Positions 34,301 to 62,957 of a DNA stretch of 64,000 bases are shown in pieces. Numbering within the stretch: position 1 is the first letter of the stretch; every line of letters starts with the position of its first letter. The position numbers and the translations under genes are program-made. Origin of the DNA: Tubulanus polymorphus (taxonomy: Eukaryota > Animalia > Nemertea); assembly GCF_964204645.1 (NCBI RefSeq), contig NC_134029.1:12364850-12428849 (forward strand), in the 5' to 3' direction. The notes beneath the pieces are model-generated. The model worked only from the letters and a program-made list of their open reading frames with translations. It had not been told where the DNA came from and made no database searches.

Positions 34301-37300
34301 AGGGATATAGTAGTTCAGTGAGAGTTCAAACTTATGGGTAATTTTGAGTGATCACAACGCTGACCAATAGAGAAACCTGTATCACAACAAAAGTGCGACT
34401 TATCTTATTGAAAAATACCGGAGAGTCAATGGGAGAACCCTGAATTCGAAACAATTCCACACTGGAATCGTCTACTTTGAAAACACAATTTGGAATTTGT
34501 GGACATGCATTATTTCTGCACCAAAAGCATGAAGTATATTATCCTTGCTTGTAAAAATTTGAAATTTTGAGGAAGATTTTTGGCCTCGTTAACCTGTGAA
34601 CATACAGTCCTTCATACATTTTCTAAGACCGACCCTTGAAATAATGCTGAGAGTTTAGAGGAAAATTATGGTAGAATGTAAACTTAGGCCGCTTCGTATC
34701 CGTGGAAGGTTGCTAATTATTGATTTTATGCACAATAATCATAAGTACCATAGGATCCATAGAATATCGTTTATCAATCATACGTTCACAAACTATCGCG
34801 ATATAAAGATAAATAGTACTTAATATACTTTTTACTTCTCATACGGTATATTTCTTTAGTAGTATAAATAAAGAGTGGATCAGCAGGCCACCTGAGACCA
34901 TTCCACGATCTAGGTCAGTTGCCAAATGTTAGTAAGTTTACTTACCAGTGGATAGTTAAAACAACTTTGTATATGGACAATAGTCACACTCAAATGCGGA
35001 GAATTGATAATACGATAATACGATACGATCACTGTGTACAAATTCAAAAAGATGATCTCTAGTGAGAGATCGAACGTTAAGTCGTTATTTTCTAATGGTG
35101 AAACTTGGTTTGAAATTTGAAATGTGCACATAGTGGATCTTCTTCATATTAACAGTGTATTTGGTCATGTATCATATTGTATAATGGTTAACTTAAACTA
35201 ACTGGTCCCAGAGTTGTATCCTTAATTCCTGTAATAGAGGATGCAATCTTTTTGCGACTAACAGTACAAATAGCTAGAAAAAGCAACGATAGTGCATTGG
35301 CAAACTAAAAGCAAGCGTACATTGGTTGTTTAAGTTTTTCTTTGGGAAAATTAATGTTTAATCATTATTGAAATATCCGAGGCGAGCTTTTCCAGGAATT
35401 TATGAAGTTGAGCTTACAAATATTTTACCACAATTTTTTATGATTAGTAAAAAGATTAAGTAATAGACATACATGCAAACAGTAATATCTGAAGTCCACT
35501 CCATTTCAAACTCATTCATCTTTACACAAACTCCAACTTGTTGAACAGTTCAAAATCGCGTGGCTTGAATTATTACGATAACTAAAATCAGGGACCACGA
35601 TACTTGCTCATCTACACTGGCTACCAATTTAACAAAGGATTGAATTTGAGTGTTTGATGTTGTAACAAAAGGCCTACCATACTGAATGATAGATTCAGTT
35701 TCTACTTTTTGATTGAACATTTATATCACATATTGGGTCATTTTTACTGGTATATATGGAAGAACCTATCCATATATCATGTTTAATTTTATATAATCTG
35801 ACTTTTGAGATGTCATTCAACCAATGCATTCATATGCGGCCGTCACGTTCAATCGCCACCACGGACTGGCTCCTTATTAGGCCCATCTCCTTGGCGATAC
35901 CTTGGCGGACGATCCCACACGTTTCTTGCACCAGCCCTAGAATCAGTGAAATTGGCGCTTTTCAGTTGTATTCATCATTCAAATCCACAATTCTCCTATC
36001 CTAAAAATGTGGAGACCCATCCTCGTATGAGAATGAATATAATATAGGCTCTGTTGCGTTCATATCATTTGATATGAGGCTCCGTGTCATCTTTAATTGA
36101 AATCTTGTGATTTCAATTAAAGATGACACGATGCCCTATATTATTACGTTATGTTTTTTAACGGGTGGGTGAGAATATATTCTTATGATTTTGTTGCTCT
36201 GAATGTTGCTATTTAAGAGTTCAATCATTTCAGTCTACCAAACAAAGGATTTTTCTGTATGTTTCGTGTCCTGTTTTTCCATAACCCTAGGACTGCATTT
36301 TAGGTATTTTTCGCGGATGACCGAAAGCTGCTGTCCCTTTCTAGTAATTTGACATATCTCCTTGTTTGACTAAGTATGAACTCAACTTTGAGGGACACTC
36401 CCTTAAAAGGCACCGAAATAAAACATGTGTTGAGTGGAGATGATATTGTGTCAGAATTTCTTCAAAAGCGGAGGAACTTGAATATTTTGAAAATAATGAT
36501 CTTACATTTATGTTTAAATCCGTTATAACTGGAGCAATTTTCATAAAAACATATCTATGGAATCAGCGAAATGTAATTAAGAAGAATACTATGTTTAAGA
36601 TGTTATCAAATACATTTGAAAAAAGTTTTCTGAATTCGTCAACTGTGAAACTAGTGTCAACCAGATGTGTTCCCATTAAACAACCGACCGCGAGCCGAGT
36701 CGATGTGAGATGAAAATCTCAAGCGCTACCACCGGTTTTTAGGTGCCTCTGAATAACGGCCGTTAAAAAACTGAACAATTGCCACTTGGAAAGGGCCTAG
36801 TGAGAGAAAATGCTAGATGTGTATATCGTGTGATACAGGCTCCATATTTCATGTGCGTTTGGAATTTAACCTTGTTTATAACGAAACACACATGTTTTTT
36901 TTCTACTTAGATTTAAAAAGAGCGCATGATAGTGCAATAAAGAACTGACAACGAAAAAGGGGTAACAGGTGACTGATATCACACCGAATTTCAATTCCTC
37001 TATGAACACTTTTCATATAGTGAATTCAATACATGAGTAAAAAAACTTGAAATATTAACGAAACAGTTTTTTGACGGACAAATCGTTACCATCGAATTTT
37101 CAAAACTTTTTTAATGCCTTGGTGACCACTGGTCTAGTACGCGGTTTTCTGAAACAAAAGTGACCAAGTCTAAAGAACAACTATTGTAACAAATCATTTC
37201 AAATATTAGGAGCCTAATGCGTTTAATGCTTTAATTAATTGGTATCGCGCTGATTGGTTGAAAGATGGGTAGTAGGGAATATGTTTGTTCAGGCCAGAGG

Positions 37301-37529
37301 TCGAGAGGTCGAGCTCACTCAACCTCTCTCCCTCTGACCTGAACAAACATATTCCTTATTACTCTATCCAATCACAAGTCTCCTAATTTACAAGTCTCAA
37401 CACGCTGGGGATTCCCCATTACTGTTGAGTAGTATAAATAAGCGGGTATTTCTGCTATACTCATAGGTGGCGGGGACGCGTTGAGCGGTAAGTGTTATTT
37501 TCAATTTTAATAAAAAATTTGATATTTAA

Positions 37530-37883
37530 ATGGAGAGTAAACAAGTACACAGTGAGAACAACAAATCATTTCTAGATAGAATAAAAGATACTACAAATGT
37601 AAAATCTGTAGATTATAAATTTAAGAATTTAAATGAACTAACAATTCATAAGAAATATTTAATTACAAATATTAAAGCAGTTACTAATAGATATAGTGAT
37701 AAATTAGTAATTCACTTAGAATATGAAGGATTAAGAGGAAATAAATATAAATTCAGAACATATTTACCAGATAGATTTCATAGATTATCAAGTGAAGATC
37801 TAGAAGAATTATGTTCTGGTGATTTCTATTTCATTTATAAAGGTAAGAATGAAAAAGGGCACAATGAAATAGATTTCGAATAA
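37530..37883 (+). CDS. Maverick small conserved protein (paralogue of 44124-44486), function unknown
   Basis: Intact 117-aa ORF with a TAAATG start. Highly similar to the inner-copy gene. Confidence 0.75.
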   Translation: MESKQVHSENNKSFLDRIKDTTNVKSVDYKFKNLNELTIHKKYLITNIKAVTNRYSDKLVIHLEYEGLRGNKYKFRTYLPDRFHRLSSEDLEELCSGDFYFIYKGKNEKGHNEIDFE

Positions 37884-37897
37884 AATATGTAAAATAA

Positions 37898-38656
37898 ATG
37901 GTAAAATTAAGAGAATATAGAATATTTGTTGATTCAAGAAGACTTACAAATTATAAATCTCATAATTTATTGATACAACTAGATAGAGAATTTAAGAATT
38001 GTGTAGATTTAAAATTAGTAAATGTAAGTTTATGTAATTCTTTTTATAATGTATCGAATAAAACTCTTGAACATAGAGCCTTTTTAATTTCTAATAAAAG
38101 TAAAAATAAATGGTATCATCTATCCCTAAAACCAGGGTTATATAATTTAGATACATTGTCACAAGAAATTAATAGAAAAGCCTGGCACAAATTAGGTAGT
38201 GATTCTGGGTTTGGCATTATATTTTTAAAAAGTGAGAGTTTTGATAAAATAAAGATAAGGTTAGCTCATGGTGAAAAACATCAATTTTTAGTTAAAAAAC
38301 CTATGGCTAAACTGTTAGGAATTACACCAGATAAACTTGATTCAAATATTGATGCTACACCAAACTTAATACCGTACACACATTTTTATATTTATTGCAA
38401 TTTAATTGATACTACAAAAACATTCGAAGCAACTAAAGATACAATTTGTAATTCTAGTATATTGAATATTTTACCATTGAAGAACGTTAAAGAATTTGGA
38501 ATGCAAATAAATTATAATTTAACAGAATGTGATTTTAAGCCTTGTATTCCACATTTCAATAATTTTAAATTAGAAATTAGAAATCACAATGGATACTTAA
38601 CTGATTTGAATAAATTTCCTGTAATTTATGAATTAGTTATAAGATGTAAAGAATAA
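37898..38656 (+). CDS. Minor capsid protein (penton, single jelly-roll), intact
   Basis: Motif order IFVDS..., PGLY, LLG, FYIYCNLI, ILNILP, LEIRNHNG..DLN..PV..EL fits Polinton/PLV pentons. Confidence 0.75.
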   Translation: MVKLREYRIFVDSRRLTNYKSHNLLIQLDREFKNCVDLKLVNVSLCNSFYNVSNKTLEHRAFLISNKSKNKWYHLSLKPGLYNLDTLSQEINRKAWHKLGSDSGFGIIFLKSESFDKIKIRLAHGEKHQFLVKKPMAKLLGITPDKLDSNIDATPNLIPYTHFYIYCNLIDTTKTFEATKDTICNSSILNILPLKNVKEFGMQINYNLTECDFKPCIPHFNNFKLEIRNHNGYLTDLNKFPVIYELVIRCKE

Positions 38657-38672
38657 TTTTTTCACTATATAA

Positions 38673-40113
38673 ATGAATATAACTGTTGGACCGAGTATAT
38701 GTTTTGGGTTTGATTTTAAAAATGGTAAAGAAATGAGGATTAAATTAAATTATGTAATTACTGATATAAAAAGTAAGTCATTTAATAATGCATCAATGAT
38801 TAATAAAGAAAATTATGATATAGAAAAAGTAATTGATTTAATTAAATCATCTTTAGAATATTATGAATTAAATGAAGATGGAATTATCGATGATATGAAA
38901 AACATATTATCTAAAATATATGATAATCATAAAAGTAGTAATAAAATAAATGTTGAAATAATTATAACAAAAATAAAAAAAATATTTTGATGATAGTATT
39001 TCCGTTGATAAATAAATGGCGGATCAGAAGTGGATAACCACTGGTTTATATAATGGAGCATTACTATCAGTTGGAACTGTTGGATATACAATGGTATTAA
39101 AAAAGTATTTAGAGTGAGAAGTATTAACGTTGATAGATTTGATATTAATGATATTTTAAAATTAACATTAGCAGTTACTTTATCTAATTTAACAATTGAT
39201 TATTTAGAAAAACAAAAATATATTCCTCCTATATAAATGCGTAATTTTTCTGCAATTATAACTATTATAGGATCAGCAATTGTTAACGCTTTAGAATTTA
39301 CAGGTGGTGGTTATTTATTTAAGCATATTGATAAAAATAGTTCAATAGCAGAACAAAGAAGACATAACTTAGCGTTAGAAAAATACAATAAAGCTGCAGA
39401 ATAATACAGAGAAAAGAGACAAAACTATATGGATTATATCAATAAAGAATTACATAATCAGAAAGTTACACATAGAGATTTTCAATCAGTTGATGAAGCT
39501 TTGAGTTTATATAATGCAGTAACAAATAAAGAAAAATTACATCTATACAAACCTAAATTATCAGATTATTATACACCAAGTAAAGAACAACAAAAATATG
39601 AAATAATTTGGATTTTAGGTGGAACAGTTATTGTATTATTTGTAGCATATAAATTTACTAAATAGTAATTTTTTTGCTACATAAATGGGTGATAAAGTTG
39701 ATAATAATGATATTATTCCTCATGATATTAATGAAATTAAATCAAAATTATATTTTGAAAAACAAATATTAGAAAATGATTTAAAAGTTAAAAAAAAAAA
39801 ATATTTAAAACGTAAAATTATATATTATTTTATTATAAGTGGTTCAGTAACAATTAGTTTTGTAATAACATTTCTAGCAATATTCAGTCCATTAACACCT
39901 TTAGCTATATCAATTGGTGTGCTAGGATTATCATCAAGTGTTTTAACCGGAATAAGTTCAAAATTAAATATAAAAGGTAATAAAGAAAAAATAAAATCTA
40001 ATATAAAAGAAATTAATAAATTAAAAAATACATACGATTATATTATAAGTTTAAATGGTAATATAACAATTCAAGAGCAGGATAAATTATTAAAAGAATT
40101 AATAAATTATTAA
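38673..40113 (+). pseudogene. Four small outer-copy genes (38673-38990, 39016-39236, 39237-39665, 39685-40113), some frameshifted or stopped
   Basis: Paralogues, in the same order, of 45266, 45622, 45868 and 46332. Confidence 0.75.
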
Positions 40114-40161
40114 TTTTTTTATTATATAAATGGCAATTAGTTTTCCAAAAGCTTTTCAATA

Positions 40162-40370
40162 AGTAATAGGGGTAATGGGCTTTCAGGCCAAAGGTCGAAG
40201 GGTCGAGCTCGTAAAAAAATGAAAATAACAATAATTTCCAGTTGAATTAGTCGCGCACACTCCTAATTCAACTGGAAATTATTGTTATTTTCATTTTTTA
40301 CTCACTCGCCCCTTCAACCTTTAGCCTGAAAGCCCATTACCCCTATTACTCTTAAAATATTCATATACAT
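40162..40370 (+). repeat. Left TIR (209 bp) containing a 189-bp hairpin
   Basis: Reverse complement of 61103-61310, with a single 1-nt indel seen. Confidence 0.95.
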
Positions 40371-43300
40371 TACTTATAAACACATACCTTTGTAATATAT
40401 CTTTGTAGAAAATGTTTACATAAATTCAGTAAATGAAAGTACATTATTAAATCATAAACAATTATGTGAAAATCATGATTATTGTAAATTAGTTTTACCA
40501 AATGAAAAGGATAAAATATTAGAATTCAAAAAATATGATTACAAAAATAAAGTACTATTTGTAATATATGGAGATTTTGAATCATTAAATAAAGAACTAA
40601 CTGATCAAGATATATATTATATAAGAAGAAATATATTATAAAAGAAAGAAATTAAACTCTAATGAAAATGATTTTTCAGTTGAACCACCAAAAACAAATA
40701 CAATTAAAATGATTAATCAATCAGCTGCTGCTTTCGGGTTATATATTAAATCTGATTATCCAGAACTAATTGAAAGTGAATATTATCATTATAGAAATGA
40801 AAATGTTATCAATCATTTTTGTGACTTATTAATTGAATATGAAATAAGATTTAATGAAAAGTTAAATAAAAATATAAAAATTATAATGACAGAAGAAGAT
40901 AACGAAGCATTTGAGTTTGCAGATAAATGTTATTATTGTGAAAAGATATTTAATTATAAAGATAAAAATGTAAGAGACCATGATCATTTGAATGGAAAGT
41001 TTAGAGGCGCTGCACATGAGAATTGTAACTTACAAGCTAAGAAAATTAACTTTGTACCAGTTATATTTCATAATCTATCAGGATATGATGCTCATTTATT
41101 TATCAAACAGCTATGTTATAAAATAGAAGAAATCAATAATGAAATAGAAAGATTAAATTCAAATAGATCAAAAGATAAAATACCAACTTATAAATTTAAA
41201 ATGTTAGCTAGAACATCTGAGAATTGTATATCATTCCAATTTGGGTGTTTAAGATTTATAGATTTTTATATAGTTCATTAGATAACTTATCAAAATCATT
41301 AGTTGATGATGAATTAAAAATATTAAAACAACACTACCCAAATAATGATGATTTCCAATTAATGAGATATAAAGGCGCAATTCCATATTCTTTCTATAAA
41401 TCACATAATGATTTTAACATAAATGAATTATTGAACAATTCTATGATGAATTAAAAAATGAATATGTTAAAGATGAAGTCTATAATAGAACATTGAATAT
41501 TTGGAATCATTTCAAAATAGAAAATCATGGACAATTAGTAGATTCATATCTAAAATCAGATGTATTATCATTAGCCGATATATTCGAAAGGTTTAGAGAT
41601 GTAAACCTAAAATATTTCAATATTGATCCTTGTCATTGTTATTCTAGTCCAGGTTTAACATGGGATTGTGGATTAAAATTTACAGATATAAAAATGGATT
41701 TGTTAACAAATATAGATCAATTATTATTATTTGAAAAATCTATAAGAAGAGGAGTTTCAGGTGTATTAGGGGATAGATATTTCAATGTAAATGATAACCC
41801 TGGATATAAATTATTATATATAGATGCAAATAATTTCGGTGTTGTCATATCGCGGAAAGACGGAATCGCGGAATTTTCCAAAAACGCGGAATTTCTTCAT
41901 TTCTACTTTAAATAGTAAACGGATTTTTTCCACGGGGATACCCACTGTCGGACAAGGCACCGGACCGATCGATGCAACGAGTTAGGTTCGAATCCCATTA
42001 TTTGCAGGCAATTTTATATGGAATTATTATATTACGATACCGTTGACTGAGCCAAATTCGGTTTTCGTATCTAGTCGACTAGTAGTCGAAACTAATAACC
42101 GAATGCGCTTGATTTTCGAACTATTTCCGGAAGTCACAAAGTAAACATTAAAAAAAACGAAACCATTTTATAATCTTTCATATCATTTAATTCAAAAAGA
42201 TAAACCACATTCGCTTATAACAACAATGTAGACACACAACACGCATGAACAATCCTAAGCCAGAATGAAATATACATAATGTCTATTTATTTTCGTCTGA
42301 CATCGATCCAGTTCCACAGTTGTGAGCTAACTCTCAGTTACTTAGAATCAATTCATTTCCAATGTTTTAAATCCAGAGACCAGAGTCAAATCTTAACTTG
42401 GAAATGAGTCCCGAAGAATGATCCATGGTGTCATCACAAATCCTACGTTTACGTACCATCGATTTGTATTCCTTCAGTTAATGCAGCGATACTCTGTATC
42501 ACTGAATTCGCAAAGCACGTATTGCCTAGGTTCTCCATTATTTGGAACAGTATCGTTAAGTTGTTGACTGGCGATATAGTTAACTATCAAATACTAATTC
42601 CCGGTGTTGAAAACCTGGGTCCGGTGCCCTGTCCGACAGTGGGTATCCCCGTGGGAAAACCCCGTTTACTATTTATAGTAAAAATGAAGAAATTCCGCGT
42701 TTTTGGAAAATTCCGCGATTCCGTCTTTCCGCGATATGACAACACCGAAATAATTTGTATGGTTGGGCAATGATGGAACCACAACCTTATGGAGTATTTG
42801 AAATAAGTGAAGTTTCACAACATGAAAATAATGATAAATTTGATTGGAAGAAAAGAATCCTAGATATTGCAGATGATTCAGATACTGGTTACTTCTTTGT
42901 TGTAGATTTAGAATATCCTGAACATATTAAATTTAAATCTAGAAATCTAGCATACTGTCCAGAACATAAAACTGTAACTCATGAAGAATTATCAAATTAT
43001 CAAAAAAGAATTAAACCCGAAAATCATATTCATACAGAAAAGTTAATGGTAACTCAAGAAGATAAATATAATTATGTAGTACATTATAGAATGTTAAAGT
43101 TTTATCTAAAACAAGGAATGACCCTAAAAAAAGTACATAGTTATATTTCATTCAGTCAATCTAAGTGGTTAGAAAAATATATAGATTTTAACACCAAACA
43201 AAGAACTGAAGCTAAAATTGATTTTGAGAAAGATTTCTTCAAACTAATGAACAATGCATTCTATGGTAAGACTTAGTGAAAATATTAGAAATAGAAATGA

Positions 43301-44094
43301 TATTGAGTTAGTTAGTAATGGTAAAATGATAAGGCATTTACAATCATATCCTAAGTTTTTAGGTAACAGAATATTTGATGAAAATTTAGCTGCAGTTAAA
43401 ATGAGAAGAACTTCTATGAAATTTAATAAATCAATTTATGTTGGAGCATCAGTTTTAGAAATATCAAAATTACTAATGTATGAATTCTATTATAATGTAT
43501 TACAACCTCATTTTGGAGAAAAACATATAGAAATCTTATATTTTGATACAGATTCTTACATATTAAAGATAAAAACTAATAACATAACTGATGATTTAAA
43601 AACATTAAAACATCATTTTGATTTCAGTAATTATCCTAAAAATCATGAATTGTTTAGCAATGATAATAAAAAGCGTCCCGGTAAATTCAAAGATGAATTA
43701 GGTGGTGAAGAAATGATAGAGTTCATTGGTATTAGATCCAAAATGTATTCATATAAAACTAAAGAATATGAAGCTAAAGGAATAACGTTAAATAAAGTTA
43801 AAAGGAATAACCAAAAGTGTAGTAGAAAAGAATATTCATTTCAAAGATTACATCAATTGTATATTCAAAGAAGAAGTTAGAAAACATAAAATGAGATGTT
43901 TAAGATCTGAAGATCATGAAATGTTTATTGAAGAGATAGAGAAGATAAGTCTAAACCCATTTGATGATAAAAGATATATTCTGGATGATGGAATTCATAC
44001 AGTTGCTTATGGTTGTAATTTAGATGAATACTTAAAATTTAAAAGAGAAGAAACAAAAGAGAACGAGATAATGAAAAGAATTCTAACGTGTTAA
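40371..44094 (+). pseudogene. polB: Protein-primed family B DNA polymerase with endonuclease-VII-like Zn insert; 5'-deleted, frameshifted and MITE-interrupted
   Basis: Motifs YGDFES, CYYC...RDHDHLNGKFRGAAHENCN, FHNLSGYD, YLKSDV, YIDANN|LYGWAM, KLMNNAFYGKT, YFDTDS, GKFKDE and RSKMYS. Confidence 0.95.
41837..42747. mobile_element. MULE-like MITE (911 bp, ~130-bp TIRs, 9-bp TSD) inside polB motif A
   Basis: CGGTGTTGTCATATCGCGG...CCGCGATATGACAACACCG flanked by AAATAATTT (41828-41836, 42748-42756). Confidence 0.92.
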
Positions 44095-44123
44095 TCAAAT
44101 TTTAATAAAAATATGTATTATAA

Positions 44124-44486
44124 ATGGAGAGTAAACAAGCAAACAGTGAGAACAACAAATTATTTCTAGATAGAATAAAAGATACTTCAAATGTCAAATC
44201 AGTAGATTATAAATTTAAGAAGTTAAAAGAATTAATAATCCATAAGAAATATCTAATTACAAATATTGATACAGTTACTAACAAATATGGAGATAAATTA
44301 GTTATACACTTAGAATATGAAGGATTAAAAGGAAATACATATAAATTCAGAACATATTTACCAGATAGATTTCATAGATTATCAAGTGAAGATCTAGAAG
44401 AATTATGTTCTGGAGATTTCTATTTCGTATACAAAGGTAAGAATGAAAAGGGGCATCATAAAATAGATTTCGAAAAAAATATGTAA
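44124..44486 (+). CDS. Maverick small conserved protein, function unknown
   Basis: Intact 120-aa ORF; paralogue at 37530. Confidence 0.75.
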   Translation: MESKQANSENNKLFLDRIKDTSNVKSVDYKFKKLKELIIHKKYLITNIDTVTNKYGDKLVIHLEYEGLKGNTYKFRTYLPDRFHRLSSEDLEELCSGDFYFVYKGKNEKGHHKIDFEKNM

Positions 44487-44491
44487 AATAA

Positions 44492-45249
44492 ATGGTAGAA
44501 TTAAAAGAATACAAAATATTTGTTGATTCTAGAAGACTTACAAATTATAAATCACATAATTTACTAGTACAATTAGATAGAGAATTTAAGAATTGTGTAG
44601 ATTCAAAATTAGTAAATATAAGTTTATGTAATTCTTTTTACAATATATCGAATAAAACTATTGAAGATAATACTTTTTTAATTCATATTAGAAATGTAAA
44701 TAAATGGTTTCATCTAATTTTAAAACCAGGATTATATAATTCAGATACATTAGCTCAAGAAATTATCAGAAGAGCACGGTTGAAAATTAGAAGTGAAGAT
44801 AAATTTATAATTAGATTTATAAAAAGTGATAGCACAAATAAAATTAAAATAAAGTTACATGATGAAAGTCAACATGCATTAATGGTAAAAAACCTATAGC
44901 TAAACTGTTAGGAATTGTACCAGATACTGTGACAGGAAACGTAGATGGTAATTCAAATTTAATGACTTTTACGCACTTTTATATTTATTGCAATTCAATT
45001 GATCCTACAAAAACATTTGAAGCAACTAAAGAAACAATTTGTAGTTCTAGTATACTAAATATTTTACCGCTAAAAAATGTTAAACAATTTGGAACGCAAA
45101 TAAATTATAATTTAACAGAATGTGATTTTAAACCTTGCATTCCTAAATTTAATAATTTTAAGTTAGAAGTAAGAAATCATAATGGATACTTAATTGATTT
45201 AAATAACTTTCCTGTGATATATGAATTAGTTATAAGATGTAGAGAGTAA
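44492..45249 (+). pseudogene. Penton (minor capsid), 1-nt frameshift near 44890
   Basis: ORFs 44492-44899 and 44929-45249 join to match the intact 37898-38656 protein. Confidence 0.8.
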
Positions 45250-45265
45250 TTTTTTCATTATATAA

Positions 45266-45625
45266 ATGAATATAACTGTTGGACCGAGTATATGTTTTGG
45301 GTTTGATTTTAAACGTGAGAAAGAAATGAAATTTAACATTAATGATGTAATTACACATATTAGAAATATTGCATTTTCTAATGAAACAACATTTGAGTAT
45401 GAAACAACAATAGATAAAGAAACTTTAAATGTAGAAAAGATTACTAATTTAATTAGAGAATCTTTAAGATTTTATGAATTAGATGAAGATTTTATCATCG
45501 ATGATATTAAAAAAATAATAATTGAAATATATACAAATGAAACTAGTAATGAAATAAATGTTGAATTAATCATAAATAAGATAACTAAATATTTTGAAGA
45601 TAGTAATTTTTTGATAAATAAATGA
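45266..45625 (+). CDS. Hypothetical Maverick protein (119 aa)
   Basis: TAAATG start. The paralogue at 38673 shares MNITVGPSICFGFDFK. Confidence 0.65.
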   Translation: MNITVGPSICFGFDFKREKEMKFNINDVITHIRNIAFSNETTFEYETTIDKETLNVEKITNLIRESLRFYELDEDFIIDDIKKIIIEIYTNETSNEINVELIINKITKYFEDSNFLINK

Positions 45626-45843
45626 GTGATAATAAGTGCATAATAACTGGATTATATAATGGAGCATTACTATCAGTTGGAACTGTTGGTTATTCAAGGG
45701 TATTAAAAAAAGTATTCAAATTGGGAAGTGTTAATGTTGATAGATTTGATATAAATGATATCTTAAAATTAACATTAGCAGTTACTTTATCTAATTTAAC
45801 TATTGATTATTTGGAAAAACAAAACTATATTCCTCCCATATAA
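45622..45843 (+). CDS. Small hydrophobic/amphipathic protein (73 aa)
   Basis: Two hydrophobic helices; paralogue at 39016. Confidence 0.7.
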   Translation: MSDNKCIITGLYNGALLSVGTVGYSRVLKKVFKLGSVNVDRFDINDILKLTLAVTLSNLTIDYLEKQNYIPPI

Positions 45844-45867
45844 ATGCGCAATTATTTTACTAAATAA

Positions 45868-46311
45868 ATGGCTTCTGCAATTATAACTATTATAGGATCG
45901 GCAATTGTTAACGCTTTAGCATTTACTGGTGGCGGTTATTTATTTAAGCATATTGATAAAAATAGTTCATTAGGAGAACAAAGAAGACATAACTTAGCAT
46001 TAGAGAAATACAATAAAGCAGCAGAAGAATACAGCGAAAAACGACAAAACTATATGGATTATATCAGGGAAGTCCCTGATTATATTAACAAGGAATTATA
46101 TGATCAGAAGATTTCACATAGAGATTTTCAATCAGTTGATGATGCAATGAGTTTAGATAACGCAGTAACCAATAAAGAAAAATTACATCTTTACAAACCT
46201 AAATTATCAGATTATTATACACCAAGTAATGAACAGAAGAAACATGAAATAATTTGGATTTTAGGCGGAACTGTTATTGTTATATTTGTTTCTTATAAGT
46301 TTACTAATTAG
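45868..46311 (+). CDS. Membrane protein with N- and C-terminal hydrophobic helices (147 aa)
   Basis: MASAIITIIGSAIVNALAFTGGGYLF ... IIWILGGTVIVIFVSYKF; paralogue at 39237. Confidence 0.75.
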   Translation: MASAIITIIGSAIVNALAFTGGGYLFKHIDKNSSLGEQRRHNLALEKYNKAAEEYSEKRQNYMDYIREVPDYINKELYDQKISHRDFQSVDDAMSLDNAVTNKEKLHLYKPKLSDYYTPSNEQKKHEIIWILGGTVIVIFVSYKFTN

Positions 46312-46331
46312 TAATTTTTTTTGATAAATAA

Positions 46332-46766
46332 ATGGATGATAAAGTTGATAATATTGATATCATTGCTCATGATATAAATAAAACTGAATTAAAAATATAT
46401 TTAGAAAAACAAATATTAGAATTTGAAAGTGATTTAAAGATAAAAAAGAAAAAATATTTAAAAAGTAAAATTATATATTATTTTATTATCAGCGGTTCAG
46501 TTACAATTAGTTCTGTAATAACATTTCTAGCAATATTCAGTCCATTAACACCTTTAGCTATATCAATTGGTGTATTAGGATTAAGTTCAAGTGTTTTAAC
46601 TGGTATAAGTTCAAAATTAAATATAAAAAGTAATAAAGAAAAAATTAAAAGTAATATAAAAGAAATTAATAAATTAAAAAATACACTAGATTATATAATA
46701 AGTTTAAATGGTCATATAACAGTTGAAGAAAAAAATAAATTATTAAAAGAATTCGTTAATTATTAA
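46332..46766 (+). CDS. Coiled-coil protein with two transmembrane helices (144 aa)
   Basis: Hydrophobic hairpin IIYYFIISGSVTISSVITFLAIFSPLTPLAISIGVLGLSSSVLTGI; paralogue at 39685. Confidence 0.75.
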   Translation: MDDKVDNIDIIAHDINKTELKIYLEKQILEFESDLKIKKKKYLKSKIIYYFIISGSVTISSVITFLAIFSPLTPLAISIGVLGLSSSVLTGISSKLNIKSNKEKIKSNIKEINKLKNTLDYIISLNGHITVEEKNKLLKEFVNY

Positions 46767-46782
46767 TTTTTTTATTATATAA

Positions 46783-48110
46783 ATGGTATATAGTTTTCCA
46801 AAAGCTTTCCAATATAATAAATCAATGAAATATAATATTCCAGCAATAGATTTTAATAAAGATATTTCATATAGAAATGAAGTTTTAAATTCATTAATTG
46901 ATTTATATATTTATGTTACTGAAAGTAATAATTTTCATGTAAAGATGGAAAATATATTTCATGTGTATACAATTAATTTTAAAAATCTAAATGAGGCAAA
47001 ACAATGGTTATTAAAATCTAATATGAAGTATTGGCAGAACCAATTAAATTTTGCTGTTTATTGCGCAACAACAGGATGTGGAATAAGTTGGAATGATCAT
47101 TTAAATAAACCAAGTTTACCATTGATGTTATCACTTTTTAGATTTCATACTTATTTTCAAATAAAATTAATATTAGATGAATTAGAATGTCCTTTACCAG
47201 GTTCAAAATATTTTTAAGAATTGAATAATAATATTAATTTTTCTAAGTTTTATAAAATATGTAATGAATTTAATATTAATTCAAATAAAGATTTTAGAGC
47301 AAAAATTGGAACAATGGGTGGATTAGGAATATTATATACTAAAGAATTTGGAAAAATAATGACAAATTCAGATATAAGAATACTAAATTGGAATGAATTA
47401 CCAAAATATTATAATAATATACAACAACAAAATAATAATGGTTGGGTTTATTTCATTTTAGAAAATAGTGAAGGTTTTACTAAAGCTGGTATACAAAGAA
47501 TAAATCAATCAATTAGAACTTATTTGATATGTATTTTAGGTGCGCAAGTTGAAACAAGATCGCCAATAGTTGGAAATGATAACGCTTCATTCGATGCGCA
47601 GAAACAATTCAAAGTATTATTTGAAGATTCCATTCATAATGATAAAAATAGATCGATTCCAGAAAACATTGTAAGATATCAAAATTATTTAGATAAATCC
47701 CATATTAGACTTAATTATTGTATAGGCCCTAATCTATTAATTATTTCTAATGATTTAGTATTAAAGATGGGAAATATAATTGGTTATAATAATCTAATTA
47801 AAAACTGCAACAATAAATAATTCATTTGGATTGAATGATATAAATAAAAAGATTATTACTGCTCCAAAATTAATGGAAGGTGAAAAAAAATAAAAAACAT
47901 ATTCAATCAACAGAAACTAAAACTAAGAATATTAAATTAAATAATGATTCTAAAATAAGAGATTACAATACTACAGAAAATATAGAAACTGATATTATTC
48001 AACATGAAATAATTAAACTAAATGATGATAATAAATCCCATGAAAATACTAAATTAGCTATAACCTGTATAGGAATTGTAATCGGAGGAATATTATATTT
48101 TAAATTTTAA
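46783..48110 (+). pseudogene. Conserved Maverick protein (~440 aa) with C-terminal TM anchor; one stop and a frameshift
   Basis: WQNQLNFAVYCATTGCGISW, ILGAQ and FDAQKQF motifs. Fragments 46783, 47221 and 47880 are collinear with 61317-62578. Confidence 0.8.
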
Positions 48111-48125
48111 TTTTTTATTATGTAA

Positions 48126-49720
48126 ATGGCAGAAGGTGGAGAAGATATTCCATTGGATGGCATGGGAAATAATAATGAAGGATATATTGATGATGAACCG
48201 CAACCCAATTTAAATGAAACTAATATTGAAGATGATAATTCATCAGCATATAATTCTAATTTAGCAGATAGTGGTTCTAAACCATCAACAGAGGAATATA
48301 TTAGAAAAACTAGATCGAGAATAAAACCTGAAAATGAAAATCAAGGTTTATCAAGACAAGATTTAGAAAATAATGAATTTATATATAAATTCAAACCTGT
48401 ATTTAAAGATTCTGGATATAATATCAATGATAGAGGCGCCAGACTTTTAGTACGACAATTAAAGTTTTTAGATGGTGAATATTATTATCGTTTGAAAGAT
48501 GATTATTATATTAATATCTCTTATAAAAATCAAGATAAAATATTAGCGGAATCAACTTTGGAAAAATTAGAACAAGATAGAATTAAAAAAATAAGTATTA
48601 ATAATGAAATAGAAAATGTAACACAAGAAGAAATAAATCACTATAAAAATAAAAAAGTATTTAAACAAAGACTTAATGAATTATTTGAAACAATCGATAA
48701 TAATTTAGAACCAGAAATGGAAGAGTATGGGGATCGATTAGATAAATTAAAATCTTCAACACCCGAAACATCGAGAAGAGATATTCAACAAATTGATAAT
48801 GATTCAAGTCAATTACAATTAGGAAAACGTTTAGATAACTTACTGGATACAATGAATTCATTTGAAGAAGATAAGATTAGTGTTTTAGATACACCCGGTA
48901 CTGAAACTGGAATAAATCGAATACAATCTTTACTAGAAAAAGAATTACTTGATCTAACTTATGATGCATTAGAAGCATTTCCTGAAAAAGCACGTAAAGA
49001 AATTAAAGGTATGCAAGAATCATCTGTTGAAATTGCTAATATTAAGATGAGATTTTCTAAAAATAACCATGTTAGAAGAAGAATTAACTAATGCAAATGA
49101 AGAATTAAAACAATTAGAATTAAATAAAGATCTTCAAGTAATTGATGAAGTTGAATATGAATGCAGAAAGTTAGCTTTAGAAAAAGAAATTGATGATTTA
49201 AAATATAATATAGAATTACAGAAAGAAGAAAGAGATACATTATTAAAATCATATGATCTTAATCATATTAAAAAATTAAAAATTATTTTTAAAGATTTGT
49301 TGAAAAAACCAGATTCTAAAATATCATTAAAAGATAGAATAAGATTATTATTTAAGTTAGAAGGAATAACAATTCTTTCAATTCTAACAGCTGTAACTAT
49401 GTTATTTACAACAATTGGTTTAGCAATATCAAATTCTTTGAAATCTACTCCTACTCCAAATAAACCAGATAAACCTCCAGATAATTCTATACAAGATACA
49501 GTTAAGGATGGTTTAAAGAAATTAGCAAAATATTTATGGGAACTATCTAAAAAAATCTGCTGCAGCATTGCCAGGAATTATTGCATCAATTGTTGGTTTT
49601 ATATTGAAATCTGCAGGAAACATTATTAACTTTGCTGCTGAACATATTATTTTATTTTTAATTACAGTTGTAAGTGCAATTATTTTTGGGTTAGTAAACA
49701 TGATAAAAAATAAGTTATAA
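48126..49720 (+). pseudogene. Long acidic coiled-coil protein with a multi-helix hydrophobic C-terminus; two frameshifts
   Basis: ORFs 48126 and 49069 continue in a shifted frame as KSAAALPGIIASIVGFILKSAGNIINFAAEHIILFLITVVSAIIFGLV. Confidence 0.7.
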
Positions 49721-49794
49721 GTTAGTAAATATGATATCAAAAGATATCAAGTAACCATGATTAAAAATAGATAATTAATTTTTTTGTTAAATAA

Positions 49795-51040
49795 ATGAGT
49801 GGGAGTTATATCAATCCTTCTAAGAATCATAGAATATCTAATGCTATTAAAGCAGAAAGATCACATCATATAATTACTCATAACCCTTCTAATATTAATC
49901 CCGATGAAACTCTATATGTTAGAATCCATCGATTAACAGAAAAATACTTTTTATGTTCCAAATAGTATTTATTTATCAGCCGATATAAAAGTAACCGGTA
50001 ATAATAATAATTATGTTGTTGATAATGTTGGAAGATATTTGATTAAAAAATTAACAATAAAGATCGGTCCAGAAACAGTTTTCTCATTAGATGATTATAA
50101 TTTATTTATGCATTATAAAGATTTATGGTTAACTAAAGAAAACAGAAATAATATGATATTTCAAGGAATCCAATCAGAAAACCAAAATAAATTAAGATCA
50201 GAAGCGCATAATGCAATATTAACTAATGCTATAGATAAATTGATAAAAAGTATACATGGAAGCAAATATAAAATTCCATTAGACTTTGAATTGATAAATA
50301 ATAATGCGCCTTTATATAAATACGCAATTCAAGAAGACGTTATATTCGAAATAACATTTGCTCCTGTTAATGAAATTGTAATATCTAGCGTTAATAAAGA
50401 TATGGGTTATAAATTATCGAATATATGTTAAGATATGATACAGTAACTGATGAAAATATTTCAAGTATAATTCAAACTAAATACAATCAAGGATTTTCAT
50501 TATTATATGATTATATTGATAAATTTAAAACTGTAACTATTAATGCAAATGATGAAATTATTAATGAGAAAATTAACTTCCCAAGAAGATCTATTAAAGG
50601 TTTATTAATATTTTTTACCATTGCAACATATACTAATGGCGCAATAAATGTTGATAATTATTATAATCCTTAAAAAGCAAAAGTAGAAATAACTATCGAA
50701 GGAATAGCAAATAAAATATTTTGTCAAGGAATGAGAATGATAGATCAATGGCCAGAAATTAGAAAACATTTTATGAATGAAAAAGTAAAATCATCTGAAA
50801 ATTGTAATATTAATCAAATTGATTATTATACCGGCAATAAATATGCATTATGGTTAGATTTTAGAACAACAGAGGATAATTCATTACATGGTTCTGGAAA
50901 AAAATTACAGAACACTAAAGATGGAATACAATTATTCATGAAAAAGAAGAGGAGACAAATATTTTAAAATGCACATTTATATTACATCTGACGCGCAATT
51001 AAATATTGTAAATTCTAAATTAAATAGTGTTATGTATTAA
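49795..51040 (+). pseudogene. Major capsid protein (double jelly-roll), frameshifted
   Basis: MSGSYINPSKNHR...ITHNPSNI...NVGRYLIKKL...YKDLW...YKIPLDFEL...RSIKGLL...YALWLDFRT..DNSLHGSG...YITSDAQLNI. The size and motifs match invertebrate Maverick hexons as I recall them. Confidence 0.78.
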
Positions 51041-51072
51041 AATTTTAACTTTAATAAAAATTTATATAATAA

Positions 51073-51918
51073 ATGGAAGGAGGTAAAGTATATAAGCATA
51101 TTCCATACATCGATACACATGAAAATAATGATGGTTTATATTATGTAATACCTTGTAATATAGCTTTGATATTTGATCCTATTTTCAAAATTTATAAAAC
51201 TAAACTAATAGAAATCGATAATAATAAAAGTGGTGTTGTTGATAATTTAAGTAATGTAATTGATAATAATGTAATACCTTCTACATCTAATAATGTAATA
51301 CCTTCTACATCTAATAATGTAATACCTTCTACATCTAATAATGCAATACCTTCTACATCTAATAATGTAATACCTTCTACATCTAATAATGTAATACCTT
51401 CTACATCAAATAATGAAATAATATTAAATATTAGTGAAAATAGAAATTATTGTGATTATTGTAAAGGTGAATTTTCAAACGCCCCATCAAATTGGAATAA
51501 ACATATGAATACAAAGGTACATATTACTAATGTAATAGAACGTGTTGGTTTAAGAGAATTTATAGAACACCCATTTAAATATGTTACAAAGTTTGTTTCA
51601 AATAAAAAAGTAAATGGTAAAGAATTATATGAAGATTTATTATTAGCAACACCTAATAAAGATGAATTAGATTTAACCGATGCTAATAAAAAATTAGGAT
51701 CAAACACTGTAAATGAAATATTAGGAGCAAACACTAATAAAGATGATAATGAAAATAAAGTTACAGATAAGCATATTGATAATAAAGATTCTATGAAACA
51801 TAAAGTAGAAAATAATGATAAATTTGATTGGATGAATAAGCATAACAATGAAACAACTATTGATGATGCGGTAAAAAGGGTGAAGAATAAGTATAAAATA
51901 AAACAACTATTGATGTAG
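51073..51918 (+). CDS. Accessory protein with (NNVIPSTS)x6 repeat and a C2H2-like zinc finger
   Basis: 24-nt repeat x6 at 51265-51408 and CDYC...WNKHMNTKVH. An acidic tail in a shifted frame to ~51989 suggests a 3' frameshift. Confidence 0.7.
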   Translation: MEGGKVYKHIPYIDTHENNDGLYYVIPCNIALIFDPIFKIYKTKLIEIDNNKSGVVDNLSNVIDNNVIPSTSNNVIPSTSNNVIPSTSNNAIPSTSNNVIPSTSNNVIPSTSNNEIILNISENRNYCDYCKGEFSNAPSNWNKHMNTKVHITNVIERVGLREFIEHPFKYVTKFVSNKKVNGKELYEDLLLATPNKDELDLTDANKKLGSNTVNEILGANTNKDDNENKVTDKHIDNKDSMKHKVENNDKFDWMNKHNNETTIDDAVKRVKNKYKIKQLLM

Positions 51919-52019
51919 ATTCGGTAGAGCATTTGAATAAATTGTTGGGGCCTGATAGTGAATTGGAGAGTGATGATGAAAGTGATTAAGATATTAATTA
52001 TATTTAACTCAAATAATAA

Positions 52020-52520: not shown

Positions 52521-52529
52521 TCATGAAAT

Positions 52530-53039
52530 TCAGTAGGTATAATTTGATTCCAATGATTGTTGCATAGATTTTTTATCTTTGTTATAAAATAAAACTAGAA
52601 ATCTTATATTCTCCCTAAAGTCTTTAACAATTGAATTATATTTTTGATTTAAAACCCATGTTGTTATCCCAAAATGTCTCCCAGAGAAAGCTAAATAACA
52701 TAACTCACTTTCTCTCACTTTTGAATCATGTAAATTAGCGCAAACATCTACAATGAATAATGTATTTGATCCTTTATAGATATCAATTGCTATTTTTAAA
52801 CAATTATCTAAATTTTCTTTTACTGTTTTAGGATCTAATATAATAAACTTTTTTATCTTAATTATATCTCTATTATATGTTTTATTCATTTCATAAGTAG
52901 GACAGAATAATATTATATTATCAAAATGATTCTTATAAATAGTTTCTAACAAATCTAATATGAAATGTGTTTTACCACAGTTTGTTACCCCAGTAACTAA
53001 CATATTATGCGGTTCAAATATAAATAAATCTTTATTCAT
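52530..53039 (-). CDS. A32/FtsK-like genome-packaging ATPase (probably degenerate)
   Basis: Walker A GVTNCGKT, Walker B LFIVDV (DD expected), and GRHFGI...LNQ. Confidence 0.88.
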   Translation of the reverse strand: MNKDLFIFEPHNMLVTGVTNCGKTHFILDLLETIYKNHFDNIILFCPTYEMNKTYNRDIIKIKKFIILDPKTVKENLDNCLKIAIDIYKGSNTLFIVDVCANLHDSKVRESELCYLAFSGRHFGITTWVLNQKYNSIVKDFRENIRFLVLFYNKDKKSMQQSLESNYTY

Positions 53040-53169
53040 TTATTCTTTTAATTTTACTAGATAAAATCCATTCATTAAATTTATCATCATACCCTTTATA
53101 TTTCACCAAAGAATACTTTTTTCCTTTTAGAGTTTTTGTTTTCAATACTTTTTCTATTTTGTATTCTAT
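53032..53169 (-). pseudogene. Chromodomain C-terminus of the Maverick integrase, separated by the BEL insertion
   Basis: IEYKIEKVLKTKTLKGKKYSLVKYKGYDDKFNEWI continues NLDEI from 56171 once the LTR element and one TSD are removed. Confidence 0.88.
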
Positions 53170-53416
53170 TGTTGAATATTGTAAGCAAGCTTATCTGTAT
53201 ATCCTGTTGTTACGGTTTATGGTCGAGTTAGTTCACGGTTTATTACTCACATTATTTGTACCTTATATAAATACAGTATTGGGAATGAATTCTATGTCAT
53301 TTGTATCTGCGATATACGTGTGTGTGTTATTGGTCTCTGGTGCGCCCGTTTAAGGGCCCGATCGTCGCAGAGTTTTCTACATTTTTGGTCCCTCAAGCCC
53401 TCGAGCCTGGAAGTAC

Positions 53417-55805: not shown

Positions 55806-56170
55806 TTGCGCTCTTGAAATATTTATAATACTTGCTGTTTAAATCGAATTTAATTATTGTATGTATATCTGTATTTTTATTTGAGGTAAACTTGAATGGT
55901 GTAAGAAAATGAAATTGTTATATCAAATTTGAGATTTATATATTTGCGGCGGGAGAAATGTTGAATATTGTAAGCAAGCTTATCTGTATATCCTGTTGTT
56001 ACGGTTTATGGTCGAGTTAGTTCACGGTTTATTACTCACATTATTTGTACCTTATATAAATACAGTATTGGGAATAAATTCTATGTCATTTGTATCTGCG
56101 ATATACGTGTGTGTGTTATTGGTCTCTGGTGCGCCCGTTTAAGGGCCCGATCGTCGCAGAGTTTTCTACA

Positions 56171-56994
56171 TCTATTTCATCTAGATTTGGTACAAGTGAT
56201 AATTCTTGTTCATAGAAATAACCTAATATTTCTTCGTCTTTTAGATCTTCTAGTTTATAAACAAAAGGTTTAGTTAATATTATCTTTTTAATCTTGAATA
56301 TTTCTTCTGTAAAATTAGGGGTATAACCTTTATAAAATGTTTTTCTATATTTAGATATTCTGACATGTTGCCTAATTTTAAATTTAGGTTCTCCGAAATC
56401 ATGTGTAACAAACGCACCATATAAATTATTCCAAACTATTTCCGAATTATCTTCTTTTCTAGATTGTATAGGTTTCATATTTGCTTTTTTATCTGAGTGT
56501 GTTGAAAAATAATCTACATCGTTATCAGATAATAGTTTTTTGAAATGTTTGTTATAAAATTCTTTACCTTCATCAAATTGTATCTTATCTGGAATAGCTT
56601 CTTTAAATATTGATTAAAAAGCATTTTTTACTTCTATACAAGTTTTATTTTTGATTGGAATTGACCATGCGTATCTACTGAATATGTCTATAACATTCAG
56701 TATCCAGAAATATCCTTTGTTGTATTCCTCTAAGTTCTTCATGTCAATTAAATCTGCTTGCCATTGTTGATCGATATATGAAACCATAACTTTTCTTGTT
56801 AAATAAGTTTTATCCATTTTCTTGTGGATTTGATATGTTGGTTGATTTTGTAACCATGATTTTAATTCACTATATTTTATATTACCATTTTCCTTATCAG
56901 ATTTAATTTTATTCCATAATTCTGAAACGTTAGAATATGATACTTCACTTTCTGGGTAATAATATAACTCTCTTAAATATTGTTCTTTTTTCAT
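56171..56994 (-). pseudogene. Maverick retroviral-like (rve) integrase, frameshifted and internally deleted
   Basis: WQADLIDM, VIDIFSRYAW, IQFDEGKEFYN and KGYTPNFTEEIF are present. The ERFNRT segment carrying the catalytic Glu appears deleted (reads SDKKA-NMKP). Confidence 0.9.
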
Positions 56995-57372: not shown

Positions 57373-57973
57373 TTGTTTTAGTTAATTTTTGTTCTGATTC
57401 ATTTTCTGTTTCGCCATTTGGTTGTAGTACAGCGTCATCTGTTTCGTTCTTACCTGATTTATATTCCATAGGTTTGATATTCGAAAATGTTATGACGCCA
57501 GTAGAAATTAATGTCATAACCGATCCTAATTGAAATGAAGCATATCCGACCCATTTTTGTAATTCAGTCATAACTAAGTAGTCATTTTTCAAATCACTAT
57601 ATAATTTATTTTCATCATCAATTGGTATTAACTGGTTACATAACTTAGAGTAACATTTTATAATACCATCACTTATAGAGTCGTTTATTCTAGCTAATCT
57701 AGCTTCTTCATAAATCTTAAAATATTTTATTACTTTATCGGGTTTCATAGCATCTAATTCTTGAAAAGTTATTATTTTCCCGATAAACTGATTACATTTA
57801 CCACTAGCAATTAATAATTCTAGATGGTGCTTACAATATAAATAGTATTCATAATCAATATAACAATAAATATTATTTTCAATTTTGATTGGAATATCCT
57901 TATTATCACCAATACCTAAATCATCTAATGTTTTTTCAATATCAATACTATTCTTACTCGATTTCTTTGACAT
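57365..57973 (-). CDS. Hypothetical Maverick protein (202 aa) with a hydrophobic C-terminal helix
   Basis: Intact ORF with a TAAATG start, overlapping the next gene. Confidence 0.65.
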   Translation of the reverse strand: MSKKSSKNSIDIEKTLDDLGIGDNKDIPIKIENNIYCYIDYEYYLYCKHHLELLIASGKCNQFIGKIITFQELDAMKPDKVIKYFKIYEEARLARINDSISDGIIKCYSKLCNQLIPIDDENKLYSDLKNDYLVMTELQKWVGYASFQLGSVMTLISTGVITFSNIKPMEYKSGKNETDDAVLQPNGETENESEQKLTKTNE

Positions 57974-58231
57974 TTATATTAGAGAAATTTAATAAGAAAA
58001 ATATTATAAGTATTATAAAATGATATCAGTATCTCTTTAGATTAATACTAGCTTAGTTAAAGGTAAATAATTTTAGTATTAGTTATTGTTTTTTTAGTAT
58101 TTTTTATTTGTGATATAAAGTATTCTTTTTGAAAAGAAAATATTAAAAAAACAATAACTAATACTGGCTAGTTGAAGATATGTAATTTTTAATACTTTTT
58201 ATTTAAAATCTATTATTCTTTAACCACTCAT

Positions 58232-58882
58232 TTAAGACTCAACGTATTGTTCATTATTTGGATCATTGTTCCATTGATCAATAAATTTCTTTGCCTTTGT
58301 TAACTGCTCTAAATATAAATGTAAATCTAGTTTATTAGATTTGATTTGATTTTCTTTCTTTTCTAGAGGTCTTAAATTTTTCCAACCCCAAATAAGGTTT
58401 TTATTGTATTCATCATTCTTGTTAAATTTAGATAACACATGATCAATATGGTAATAATCCCCATAATTATCTATGTTCATTTTATCGTCGAATTGAAATA
58501 TAATCCATGATTTGAGAAATTCATCTGAACAACCCAACAAATTAGATAATGTTTCTGAATGTGTTTCTTTGTTGAATAATTGTGTTAATCTAGATCTTAA
58601 GCATTGTTTCAATCTAAAATTAAGATCTATTTGATATCTTTCTCTCATATATTCTGCCATATAATAATTATAATGTTCTATATTATCTTCTCGGTATTGT
58701 TTGGTATATAGCTTAGTGCAAGTTTTACAGCAATATTGAAAACCATCTTTGCTAATCTTACGCTTACTAAATTCTGTTAAAGCTAATTTATCTAATTCAC
58801 ATTTAGAACACTTCTTGTAGTATATATTTATAACACCAGTGTTATTTGTAATATTAATACTTTGTGGTTGTTCTGGCTCCAT
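58232..58882 (-). CDS. Zn-ribbon plus HNH/endonuclease-VII-like protein of the type common in large DNA viruses
   Basis: KKCSKC...KDG...CKTC, LLGCS, NYG.YYHIDHV and NLRPL...EN..KSNK. Confidence 0.78.
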   Translation of the reverse strand: MEPEQPQSINITNNTGVINIYYKKCSKCELDKLALTEFSKRKISKDGFQYCCKTCTKLYTKQYREDNIEHYNYYMAEYMRERYQIDLNFRLKQCLRSRLTQLFNKETHSETLSNLLGCSDEFLKSWIIFQFDDKMNIDNYGDYYHIDHVLSKFNKNDEYNKNLIWGWKNLRPLEKKENQIKSNKLDLHLYLEQLTKAKKFIDQWNNDPNNEQYVES

Positions 58883-59039
58883 TTATTATACATATTTTTT
58901 TACTAAATTGGTTAATATTTTAGAATCCTCTTCCATTTCTTCGACCAACGTCATCCTTTTTCATTCCTCGCTGCTTTTGATAAGTCGTTTCGATTCTTTG
59001 ATATCTAAATCATACCAGTTACAATACCCGCGTCACATG

Positions 59040-61102: not shown

Positions 61103-61310
61103 ATGTATATGAATATTTTAAGAGTAATAGGGGTAATGGGCTTTCAGGCTAAAGGTTGAAGGGGCGAGTGAGTAAAAAATGAAAATAACAATAATTTCCA
61201 GTTGAATTAGGAGTGTGCGCGACTAATTCAACTGGAAATTATTGTTATTTCATTTTTTTACGAGCTCGACCCTTCGACCTTTGGCCTGAAAGCCCATTAC
61301 CCCTATTACT
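61103..61310 (-). repeat. Right TIR (208 bp) containing the same hairpin
   Basis: Reverse complement of 40162-40370. Confidence 0.95.
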
Positions 61311-61316
61311 TCAATA

Positions 61317-62578: not shown

Positions 62579-62957
62579 ATACCTGCAAAGCAGCGATAAC
62601 AGGTTTTCTGCACAGTCTTAGAATCCTGTTCAACGGTGGATTTCGACATAGCATTTGATAATGCACAACATCAGCCATTACTAACTAAACAGGCTATTAG
62701 GAAACAGTATCAATGACAGGTCGCCCAAATGGCTCAGCAGTTATCTCTGAACGAAAACTTGTAGCCGAAATCAACGGAACGCCTCATTTTGGAATGAGTC
62801 GGTCTAACGCAAGGTAGTATCCTAAGTCGTCTTCTGTTCAATGTCCTGACAAATGACATACACAGTAATCCAAAATATACCAGACCGAGTAAATTTCCAA
62901 AACGACCTTAACACACTGTTCGACCAAAAAACTTAATGTTCCGACAAAACCACGGGG

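Follow-up and report, generated by a model that had tools for sequence, protein, structure and literature searches.

A pox-type start motif in a nested pair of Mavericks from the nemertean Tubulanus polymorphus, and the case for a helper virus

It has long been unsettled whether Mavericks/Polintons live as autonomous viruses of the nucleus or as parasites of large DNA viruses, and a locus of the nemertean Tubulanus polymorphus raises the question in a particular form: whose RNA polymerase reads such an element? The window analyzed, a stretch of 64,000 nucleotides (nt) of NC_134029.1 to which all positions below are relative, holds a decayed, nested pair of Mavericks/Polintons in which gene after gene begins at the word TAAATG with a run of T or A shortly upstream. 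This start motif is a real, family-wide feature. Its sites are probably post-replicative promoters for a pox-type RNA polymerase brought by a co-infecting helper virus, which would make the element a provirophage-like Maverick. That reading is built on direct observations, namely the anatomy of the element, the motif itself, its conservation in the family, how seldom it occurs in other polintons, and the failure to detect a polymerase gene. With a promoter grammar of pox type in a family that integrates and encodes capsids, the question of autonomy becomes open to direct test.

An earlier note on this DNA had described seven consecutive genes of the inner Maverick (40162-61310, inserted in the outer copy within the gene homologous to 46783) as starting with a T-run, a spacer and TAAATG, and all seven are as it stated. 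On the plus strand, T6 and a 7-nt spacer precede TAAATG at open reading frame (ORF) 45266 (45250..45268), and a 6-nt spacer follows T6 at ORF 45622 (45607..45624), T4 at ORF 45868 (45855..45870), T8 at ORF 46332 (46315..46334), T7 at the broken gene 46783 (46767..46785), T6 at the broken gene 48126 (48111..48128) and T7 at the major capsid protein (MCP) gene, 49795 (49779..49797). Together with outer-copy starts 38673, 39685 and 40130, where the motif was likewise said to persist, 10 of 10 are confirmed. Persistence in the outer copy is not complete, as the T-run is gone at 39016 (the homologue of 45622) and the start of the 45868 homologue is deleted. Space between genes does barely exceed the motif, with gaps of 16-24 nt at four junctions. 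The placing of the 45622 motif inside the upstream coding sequence is a particular of the inner copy, since in the outer copy and in the metagenome relative L001 the upstream ORF stops before it. The description of these genes as a structural block is borne out for the MCP gene; none of the other six T-run genes matches a family at curated cut-offs, and ORF 46332 has a weak SLATT-like match (two membrane segments) below cut-off.

Other starts carry TAAATG with an A-run instead of a T-run. On the plus strand these are ORF 44124 (A5 and 9 nt; 44104..44126), the minor capsid gene, 44492 (A7 and 9 nt; 44473..44494), and ORF 51073 (A5 and 9 nt; 51053..51075), and on the minus strand the A32-type packaging ATPase gene, 53039 (53037..53055), and the endonuclease VII/HNH-like ORF 58882 (A7 and 9 nt; 58880..58901). 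TAAATG of ORF 57973 (57971..57990, minus strand) belongs to neither class, and three of its four relatives have a T-run. In the outer copy TAAATG starts are found at 37530 and 37898 with an A-run, at 38673, 39685 and 40130 with a T-run and at 39016 where the T-run is lost. The whole window has 12 distinct T4-N5-8-TAAATG sites, and 10 of them are the named starts. With 200 dinucleotide shuffles of the AT-rich element (42761-53150) as background, the enrichment that the earlier note had made a test of its claim is borne out: there are 8 sites of the T4-run pattern in the element against a shuffle mean of 1.32 and maximum of 6, so that none of the 200 reaches 8, and the strict T6-N6-7 form occurs at 6 sites against 0.12.

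Relatives give the motif its weight. Fourteen metagenome loci (L001-L014, G+C fraction 0.20-0.44) were gathered by capsid alignment, and their capsids are 53-83% identical to P0106, a natural homologue of the MCP, when P0106's own locus is excluded. Of the 70 starts in a curated set, the inner copy supplied 15 and these loci 55; left out were the duplicates of L002 in L003, ORFs cut by contig ends, internal-methionine starts, overlapping short ORFs with no homologue, and L009:1359, a 46783 homologue whose first ATG lacks TAA. Directly before the ATG stands TAA at 64 of the 70 starts and TGA at one, and by group TAAATG is found at 13/15 in the inner copy and at 28/30, 9/10 (G+C 36-44%) and 14/15 elsewhere. 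TAA is an in-frame stop, and for that reason the comparison set was all other first ATGs after a stop (n=1686), among which TAA precedes 105, TAG 49 and TGA 47. With automatic ORF calling and no curation, TAAATG is at 49 of 58 starts in L001-L014 and at 11 of 21 in the inner copy, which is fragmented.

As controls, 41 loci with a distant polinton-type protein-primed DNA polymerase B (PolB, 27-39% identity) were taken from a PolB alignment. TAAATG begins 24 of their 330 ORFs, or 12 of 309 in the 39 loci that remain without L037 and L016. The AT-rich controls mostly do without it: L052 (G+C 0.22) has it at 1 of 10 starts, L040 (0.26) at 2 of 9 and L032 (0.29) at none of 9. The element has a G+C content of 23.5% and its flanks 36.8%, and the earlier note had taken this AT enrichment as support for a pox-like partner, an argument that falls, given that relatives of 36-44% G+C keep TAAATG while controls of 22-29% mostly lack it. 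Controls and GC-richer relatives together indicate that the TAAATG trait is bound to lineage and not to composition, and that it occurs in at least one further lineage. That lineage is represented by L037 (1-9034), a distant polinton (PolB 29% identical, G+C 0.38, protease fused to the integrase) with TAAATG at 7 of 7 ORFs including PolB, mostly without a T-run. L016 (1-13457), a polinton with a PF21738 capsid and a protease, has TAATAAATG or TAAAATG at most starts (strict TAAATG 5/14) and is possibly a third, looser case. Searches with capsid and ATPase queries against viral contigs, with the capsid against genome contigs, and of a phage collection gave no relative.

Upstream of the 64 TAAATG starts two classes can be told apart, in a division made after inspection: 37 have a T-run, 20 an A-run around -10 to -15, and 7 neither. 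A T4 run lies 5-8 nt upstream of TAAATG at those 37 starts out of 64, and of 104 TAAATG sites elsewhere 9 have one; among the starts T is found at -9 in 90% and at -10 in 76%. MCP genes have the T-run in 9 of 12 cases, ATPase genes the A-run in 4 of 5 and homologues of gene 51073 the A-run in 3 of 3. Head-to-head genes bring both classes together. Their ATGs are 28 bp apart in L007, 28 bp in L011 and 30 bp in L008 (19 bp in L003 and 34 bp in L037), and in L007, L011 and L008 a single tract reads as T5-8 and 6-7 nt towards the capsid gene and as A5-8 and 10 nt the opposite way. Minor capsid genes were recognized at L007:1669 and L014:923.

The resemblance is to vaccinia and is a close one, judged against published descriptions, with offsets of one to three bases. 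Vaccinia late promoters have the word TAAAT(G) and, as the 10th nucleotide upstream, a conserved T; in intermediate promoters the word is TAAA, and the part upstream of it prefers A and is followed by T (PMC11980589). A T-containing core lies 5-7 bp before TAAAT in late promoters (PMC5294985), an intermediate promoter has a 12-bp spacer, and the G8R promoter as printed has, by eye, a reverse TAAATG 30 nt from the ATG (both PMC12917281). TAAATG is also known from salmon gill poxvirus and an entomopoxvirus (PMC4542343, PMC3061580). The element thus has in common with vaccinia intermediate and late genes a TAAAT overlapping the ATG, a T- or A-rich element about one helical turn upstream and compact divergent pairs. 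It differs in that the motif belongs to a Maverick with no detected polymerase, that the full TAAATG is at nearly all genes and that the promoters are predicted ones.

Were the helper reading right, DNA of the element would reach the cytoplasmic factory during helper infection, and the helper polymerase would initiate in the AAA of TAAATG and slip there to give a poly(A) leader. The T at -3 would then never be in the message, as initiation would be within the AAA. A-run promoters would act as intermediate-type ones for the ATPase and other genes, T-run promoters as late-type ones for the major capsid and membrane proteins, and a single A/T tract would drive both genes of a head-to-head pair. 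The earlier note's suggestion of a pox-type polymerase acting in trans is the best-supported reading, in view of the family conservation, the control polintons, the A-run class and the divergent pairs of 28-30 bp, and it stays a proposal drawn from sequence.

Several observations weigh against it. Because the starts of the family are homologous to one another, they do not count as independent observations, and their very small p-values make the case look stronger than it is and are descriptive only. TAAATG alone is not over-abundant in the element, with 28 occurrences against 21.9 and 26 of 200 shuffles reaching that number; as the count is near shuffle level and the placement at starts is non-random, the signal of the motif is positional. 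Integrase genes start without TAAATG in 3 of 5 cases. The classes, besides having been defined after inspection, are not fixed by gene (minor capsid 2 T-run and 2 A-run, gene 48126 likewise 2 and 2), and within the window by itself the A-run class stands out only marginally, at 3 sites against 0.71 (reached in 7 of 200 shuffles). No gene in common with a poxvirus was found in these loci, which are partial, and the element integrates, a step needing the nucleus. TAAAT-like words are also described from iridovirus promoters. The fit to vaccinia is inexact too: the A-run ends 9-11 nt before the initiator as against the 12-bp spacer (PMC12917281), and the best-conserved T is at -9 as against the 10th nucleotide (PMC11980589).

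The explanation that comes closest keeps the mechanism and changes the partner, the helper being another cytoplasmic large DNA virus, asfarvirus-like or of an unnamed lineage. African swine fever virus (ASFV) late promoters are bipartite and T/A-rich, with a TATA initiator and short leaders (PMC7458399), a pacmanvirus transpoviron has pacmanvirus promoters (PMC11788076), and 29 of the 70 starts have TATA no more than 10 nt from the ATG. The invariant word is nevertheless TAAATG, at 64 of 70, with TATA at just those 29, and whereas ASFV genes end in 6-7 T (PMC7458399), T6 is at only 2 of the 36 gene ends in this family that lack a close downstream start. Such a helper is unlikely, though worth keeping in mind.

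Rather improbable is transcription in the nucleus by host RNA polymerase II (Pol II) with a specificity factor encoded by the element. The element does integrate, several of its conserved ORFs have no assigned function so that a divergent factor may exist among them, TATAAATG, which contains a TATA-like word, is at 23 of 70 starts, and what we take to be a cluster of Pol II-like words is found at 37368-37495, by the left end of the outer copy. With a TATA box that overlaps the ATG, though, RNA would start some 25-30 nt downstream, inside the ORF, and 28-30 bp between divergent ATGs would seem too little room for two Pol II promoters and their leaders. No match to the TATA-binding protein (TBP) family, or to an RNA polymerase family, was found in the window or in L001-L014, which are partial loci. 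AATAAA is present in 29 of 36 coding sequences of at least 600 nt and is not depleted in coding strands (138 against 147 expected).

The motif might also be a by-product of tight packing and translation context, with an in-frame stop and an A-rich start in AT-rich DNA, and with messages made by splicing or trans-splicing from a few upstream promoters. TAA is indeed such a stop, G is at +4 in 47 of 70 starts and the element is only 23.5% G+C. Packing would not account for the choice of stop, which before the starts is TAA in 64 and TGA in 1 of 70, against the mixture of all three before the 1686 control ATGs. T at -3 is a poor Kozak base, yet it is there in 65 of 70 starts, which fits a transcription start inside the AAA. 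An AG, as a splice acceptor would have, is within 14 nt in just 9 of 70, and composition is answered by the AT-rich controls without TAAATG and the GC-richer relatives with it, all of which makes this explanation very improbable.

Scarcely credible is the T-run as terminator of the upstream gene with TAAATG as the sole start signal: several T-runs do sit directly after a stop codon, but T6 follows the stop at 13 of the 35 ends that have a start close downstream and at 2 of the 36 that do not (p 0.0013, the ends of the window's broken genes being approximate), and T-runs are present in head-to-head promoters, where no gene ends. Coding strands have fewer exact TTTTT-N-T words than expected (11 against 20.9); this was rejected as evidence for a terminator, since runs of A5 and A6 are depleted too and the depletion, being one of homopolymers generally, is not specific.

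A poxvirus as the likely helper of a Maverick would have partial precedents. Small double-stranded DNA parasites that carry helper-type promoter words are already familiar, and one of them, Mavirus, has a protein-primed PolB and an integrase, as this Maverick family does. Sharing of helper promoters is established for Mavirus, Sputnik and Gezel-14T (PgVV) (10.1101/2022.07.28.501842) and for the pacmanvirus transpoviron (PMC11788076). Their helpers are relatives of mimivirus or asfarviruses in protists, with the words AAAATTGA, TCTA and TATATA, whereas here the word is of pox type. Closer in the partner proposed are the Polinton-like viruses (PLVs) found in entomopoxvirus occlusion bodies by Barth et al. 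(2024, PMC11296320), polinton-type elements likewise proposed as poxvirus parasites; they have capsids of about 370 amino acids (aa), a protease and no rve integrase, as against a 415-aa capsid, rve and no detected protease in this family (capsids compared by eye). The earlier note had connected PLVs with such motifs to entomopoxviruses, and for the motif part of this the main text of Barth et al. offers no basis, with no occurrence of promoter, motif, TAAA or upstream.

With Mavericks/Polintons and adintoviruses (Starrett et al. 2021, PMC8502044) the family shares protein-primed PolB, rve, ATPase, major and minor capsid genes, terminal inverted repeats and a 6-bp target duplication, and it is set apart by pox-type starts and by the lack of a detected adenain. 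The words "promoter" and "helper" are absent from the part of Starrett et al. available, and no published report of pox-type promoters in Mavericks/Polintons was found in a search outside which most subscription journals lay. Yeast killer plasmids, also linear, have promoters whose motifs are akin to vaccinia and ASFV ones (PMC7458399). They encode a minimal polymerase of their own, whereas none was detected in the present element, which has capsid genes and integrates.

If the helper is of poxvirus type, the provirophage idea would extend from protists and relatives of mimivirus to poxvirus-type helpers, the inserted copies might be an inherited defence against poxviruses, and the motif would be a sign of pox-like viruses in hosts that may so far have no known ones. 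A bolder proposition is that a whole lineage of Mavericks in animal genomes are provirophages of unrecognized pox-like viruses, running an intermediate-to-late programme on the helper polymerase, that two polinton lineages at the least, this family and L037, have acquired or kept the trait, and that the grammar of the start codon predicts autonomy or dependence on a helper. This is tentative, with the chances somewhat against it. A deoxynucleoside kinase gene (PF01712), which would suit cytoplasmic replication, is in L001 (10340-10981), where it has a T-run promoter-like motif, and in L006 (2895-3377). The sole match to the L001 kinase, 37% identical, is in L015, an unrelated large DNA virus that serves as a control, with TAAATG at 1 of 15 ORFs.

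The inner Maverick is bounded by terminal inverted repeats at 40162..40370 and 61103..61310 that are 99.5% identical, with the same 6-bp target duplication before the left and after the right one, and its ends are AG...CT. Within the repeats, 40162-40351 and 61123-61310 are 190-nt imperfect hairpins (DNA fold -80.6 kcal/mol, z -23). Both hairpin arms have an A-rich word broken by TG (40214, 40299 on the minus strand, and 61174). It fits the vaccinia early consensus as published and points into the hairpin, at the leftward end towards the PolB side. Of the outer Maverick, the left part (37269..40161, plus strand) retains a hairpin end and has no PolB, and the homologue of 46783 that the insertion split continues on the same strand at 61311..62580.

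PolB of the inner copy is a remnant (40395..44091, plus strand) with its 5′ part and promoter missing. It corresponds to about residues 438-1363 of the 1363-aa homologue P0307, at 64-86%, and is interrupted by an inverted-repeat element near 41838-42748. Several PolB homologues carry PF03175, and named ones from a spider and a crinoid are 43-45% identical. The minor capsid gene (44492-45249, plus strand) is broken, its homology having been found by an iterated profile from L016. The MCP gene (49795..51040, plus strand), located by tblastn with P0106, encodes a double jelly roll and is frameshifted in the inner copy; the capsid of the family has 415 aa, a model of a homologue with pLDDT 94 has iridovirus and PBCV-1 capsids as its Foldseek matches, and no PF21738 match was found in 67 aligned relatives. 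On the minus strand are the packaging ATPase gene (52530-53039; PF04665, E 2.5e-10) and a remnant of a retroviral-type integrase, rve (56116..56994), that starts without TAAATG in the inner copy and whose match is weak in the window and E 1.5e-10 in L001.

Two of the broken genes have full-length counterparts in L001, of 442 aa for 46783 and 485 aa for 48126, the latter figure being also the longest stop-free frame in L001-L014. Gene 46783 had no match in Pfam, PHROGs, Atlas or the PDB, neither it nor 45868 has a homologue in the 41 control loci, and an Rfam search of the window gave no match. The adenain protease profile had no match in the window or in L001-L014, which are partial, against 19 in control loci, and the protease has likely been lost in the family. 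Its apparent absence coincides with a conserved block of genes (45622-49750, and 1733-5785 in L001) whose products have hydrophobic, likely membrane-spanning ends, as judged by eye with one weak SLATT match.

At the 3′ end of the integrase remnant, 53170-56171 is a long terminal repeat retroelement, presumably of Bel/Pao type, with two identical 213-nt repeats and DUF1759; it is a recent insertion into a dead Maverick. Towards the right end of the inner element are four copies of a GC-richer repeat of 114-126 nt (59004-59470), followed by a host repeat that is also present at 4113-5800. Behind the outer left hairpin, 37360-37500 has a cluster of words that we take to be CCAAT-like, palindromic kappaB-like (37407), TATA-like (37433) and splice-donor-like, at the place where PolB would begin. 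These words may be a host Pol II promoter that infection switches on to express PolB, or the DNA may be unrelated. Further left in the window, at 18814-24653, a 4.5-kb segment that includes a reverse transcriptase ORF is flanked by inverted repeats of 692 nt (99%); the whole may be a composite or DIRS-type element.

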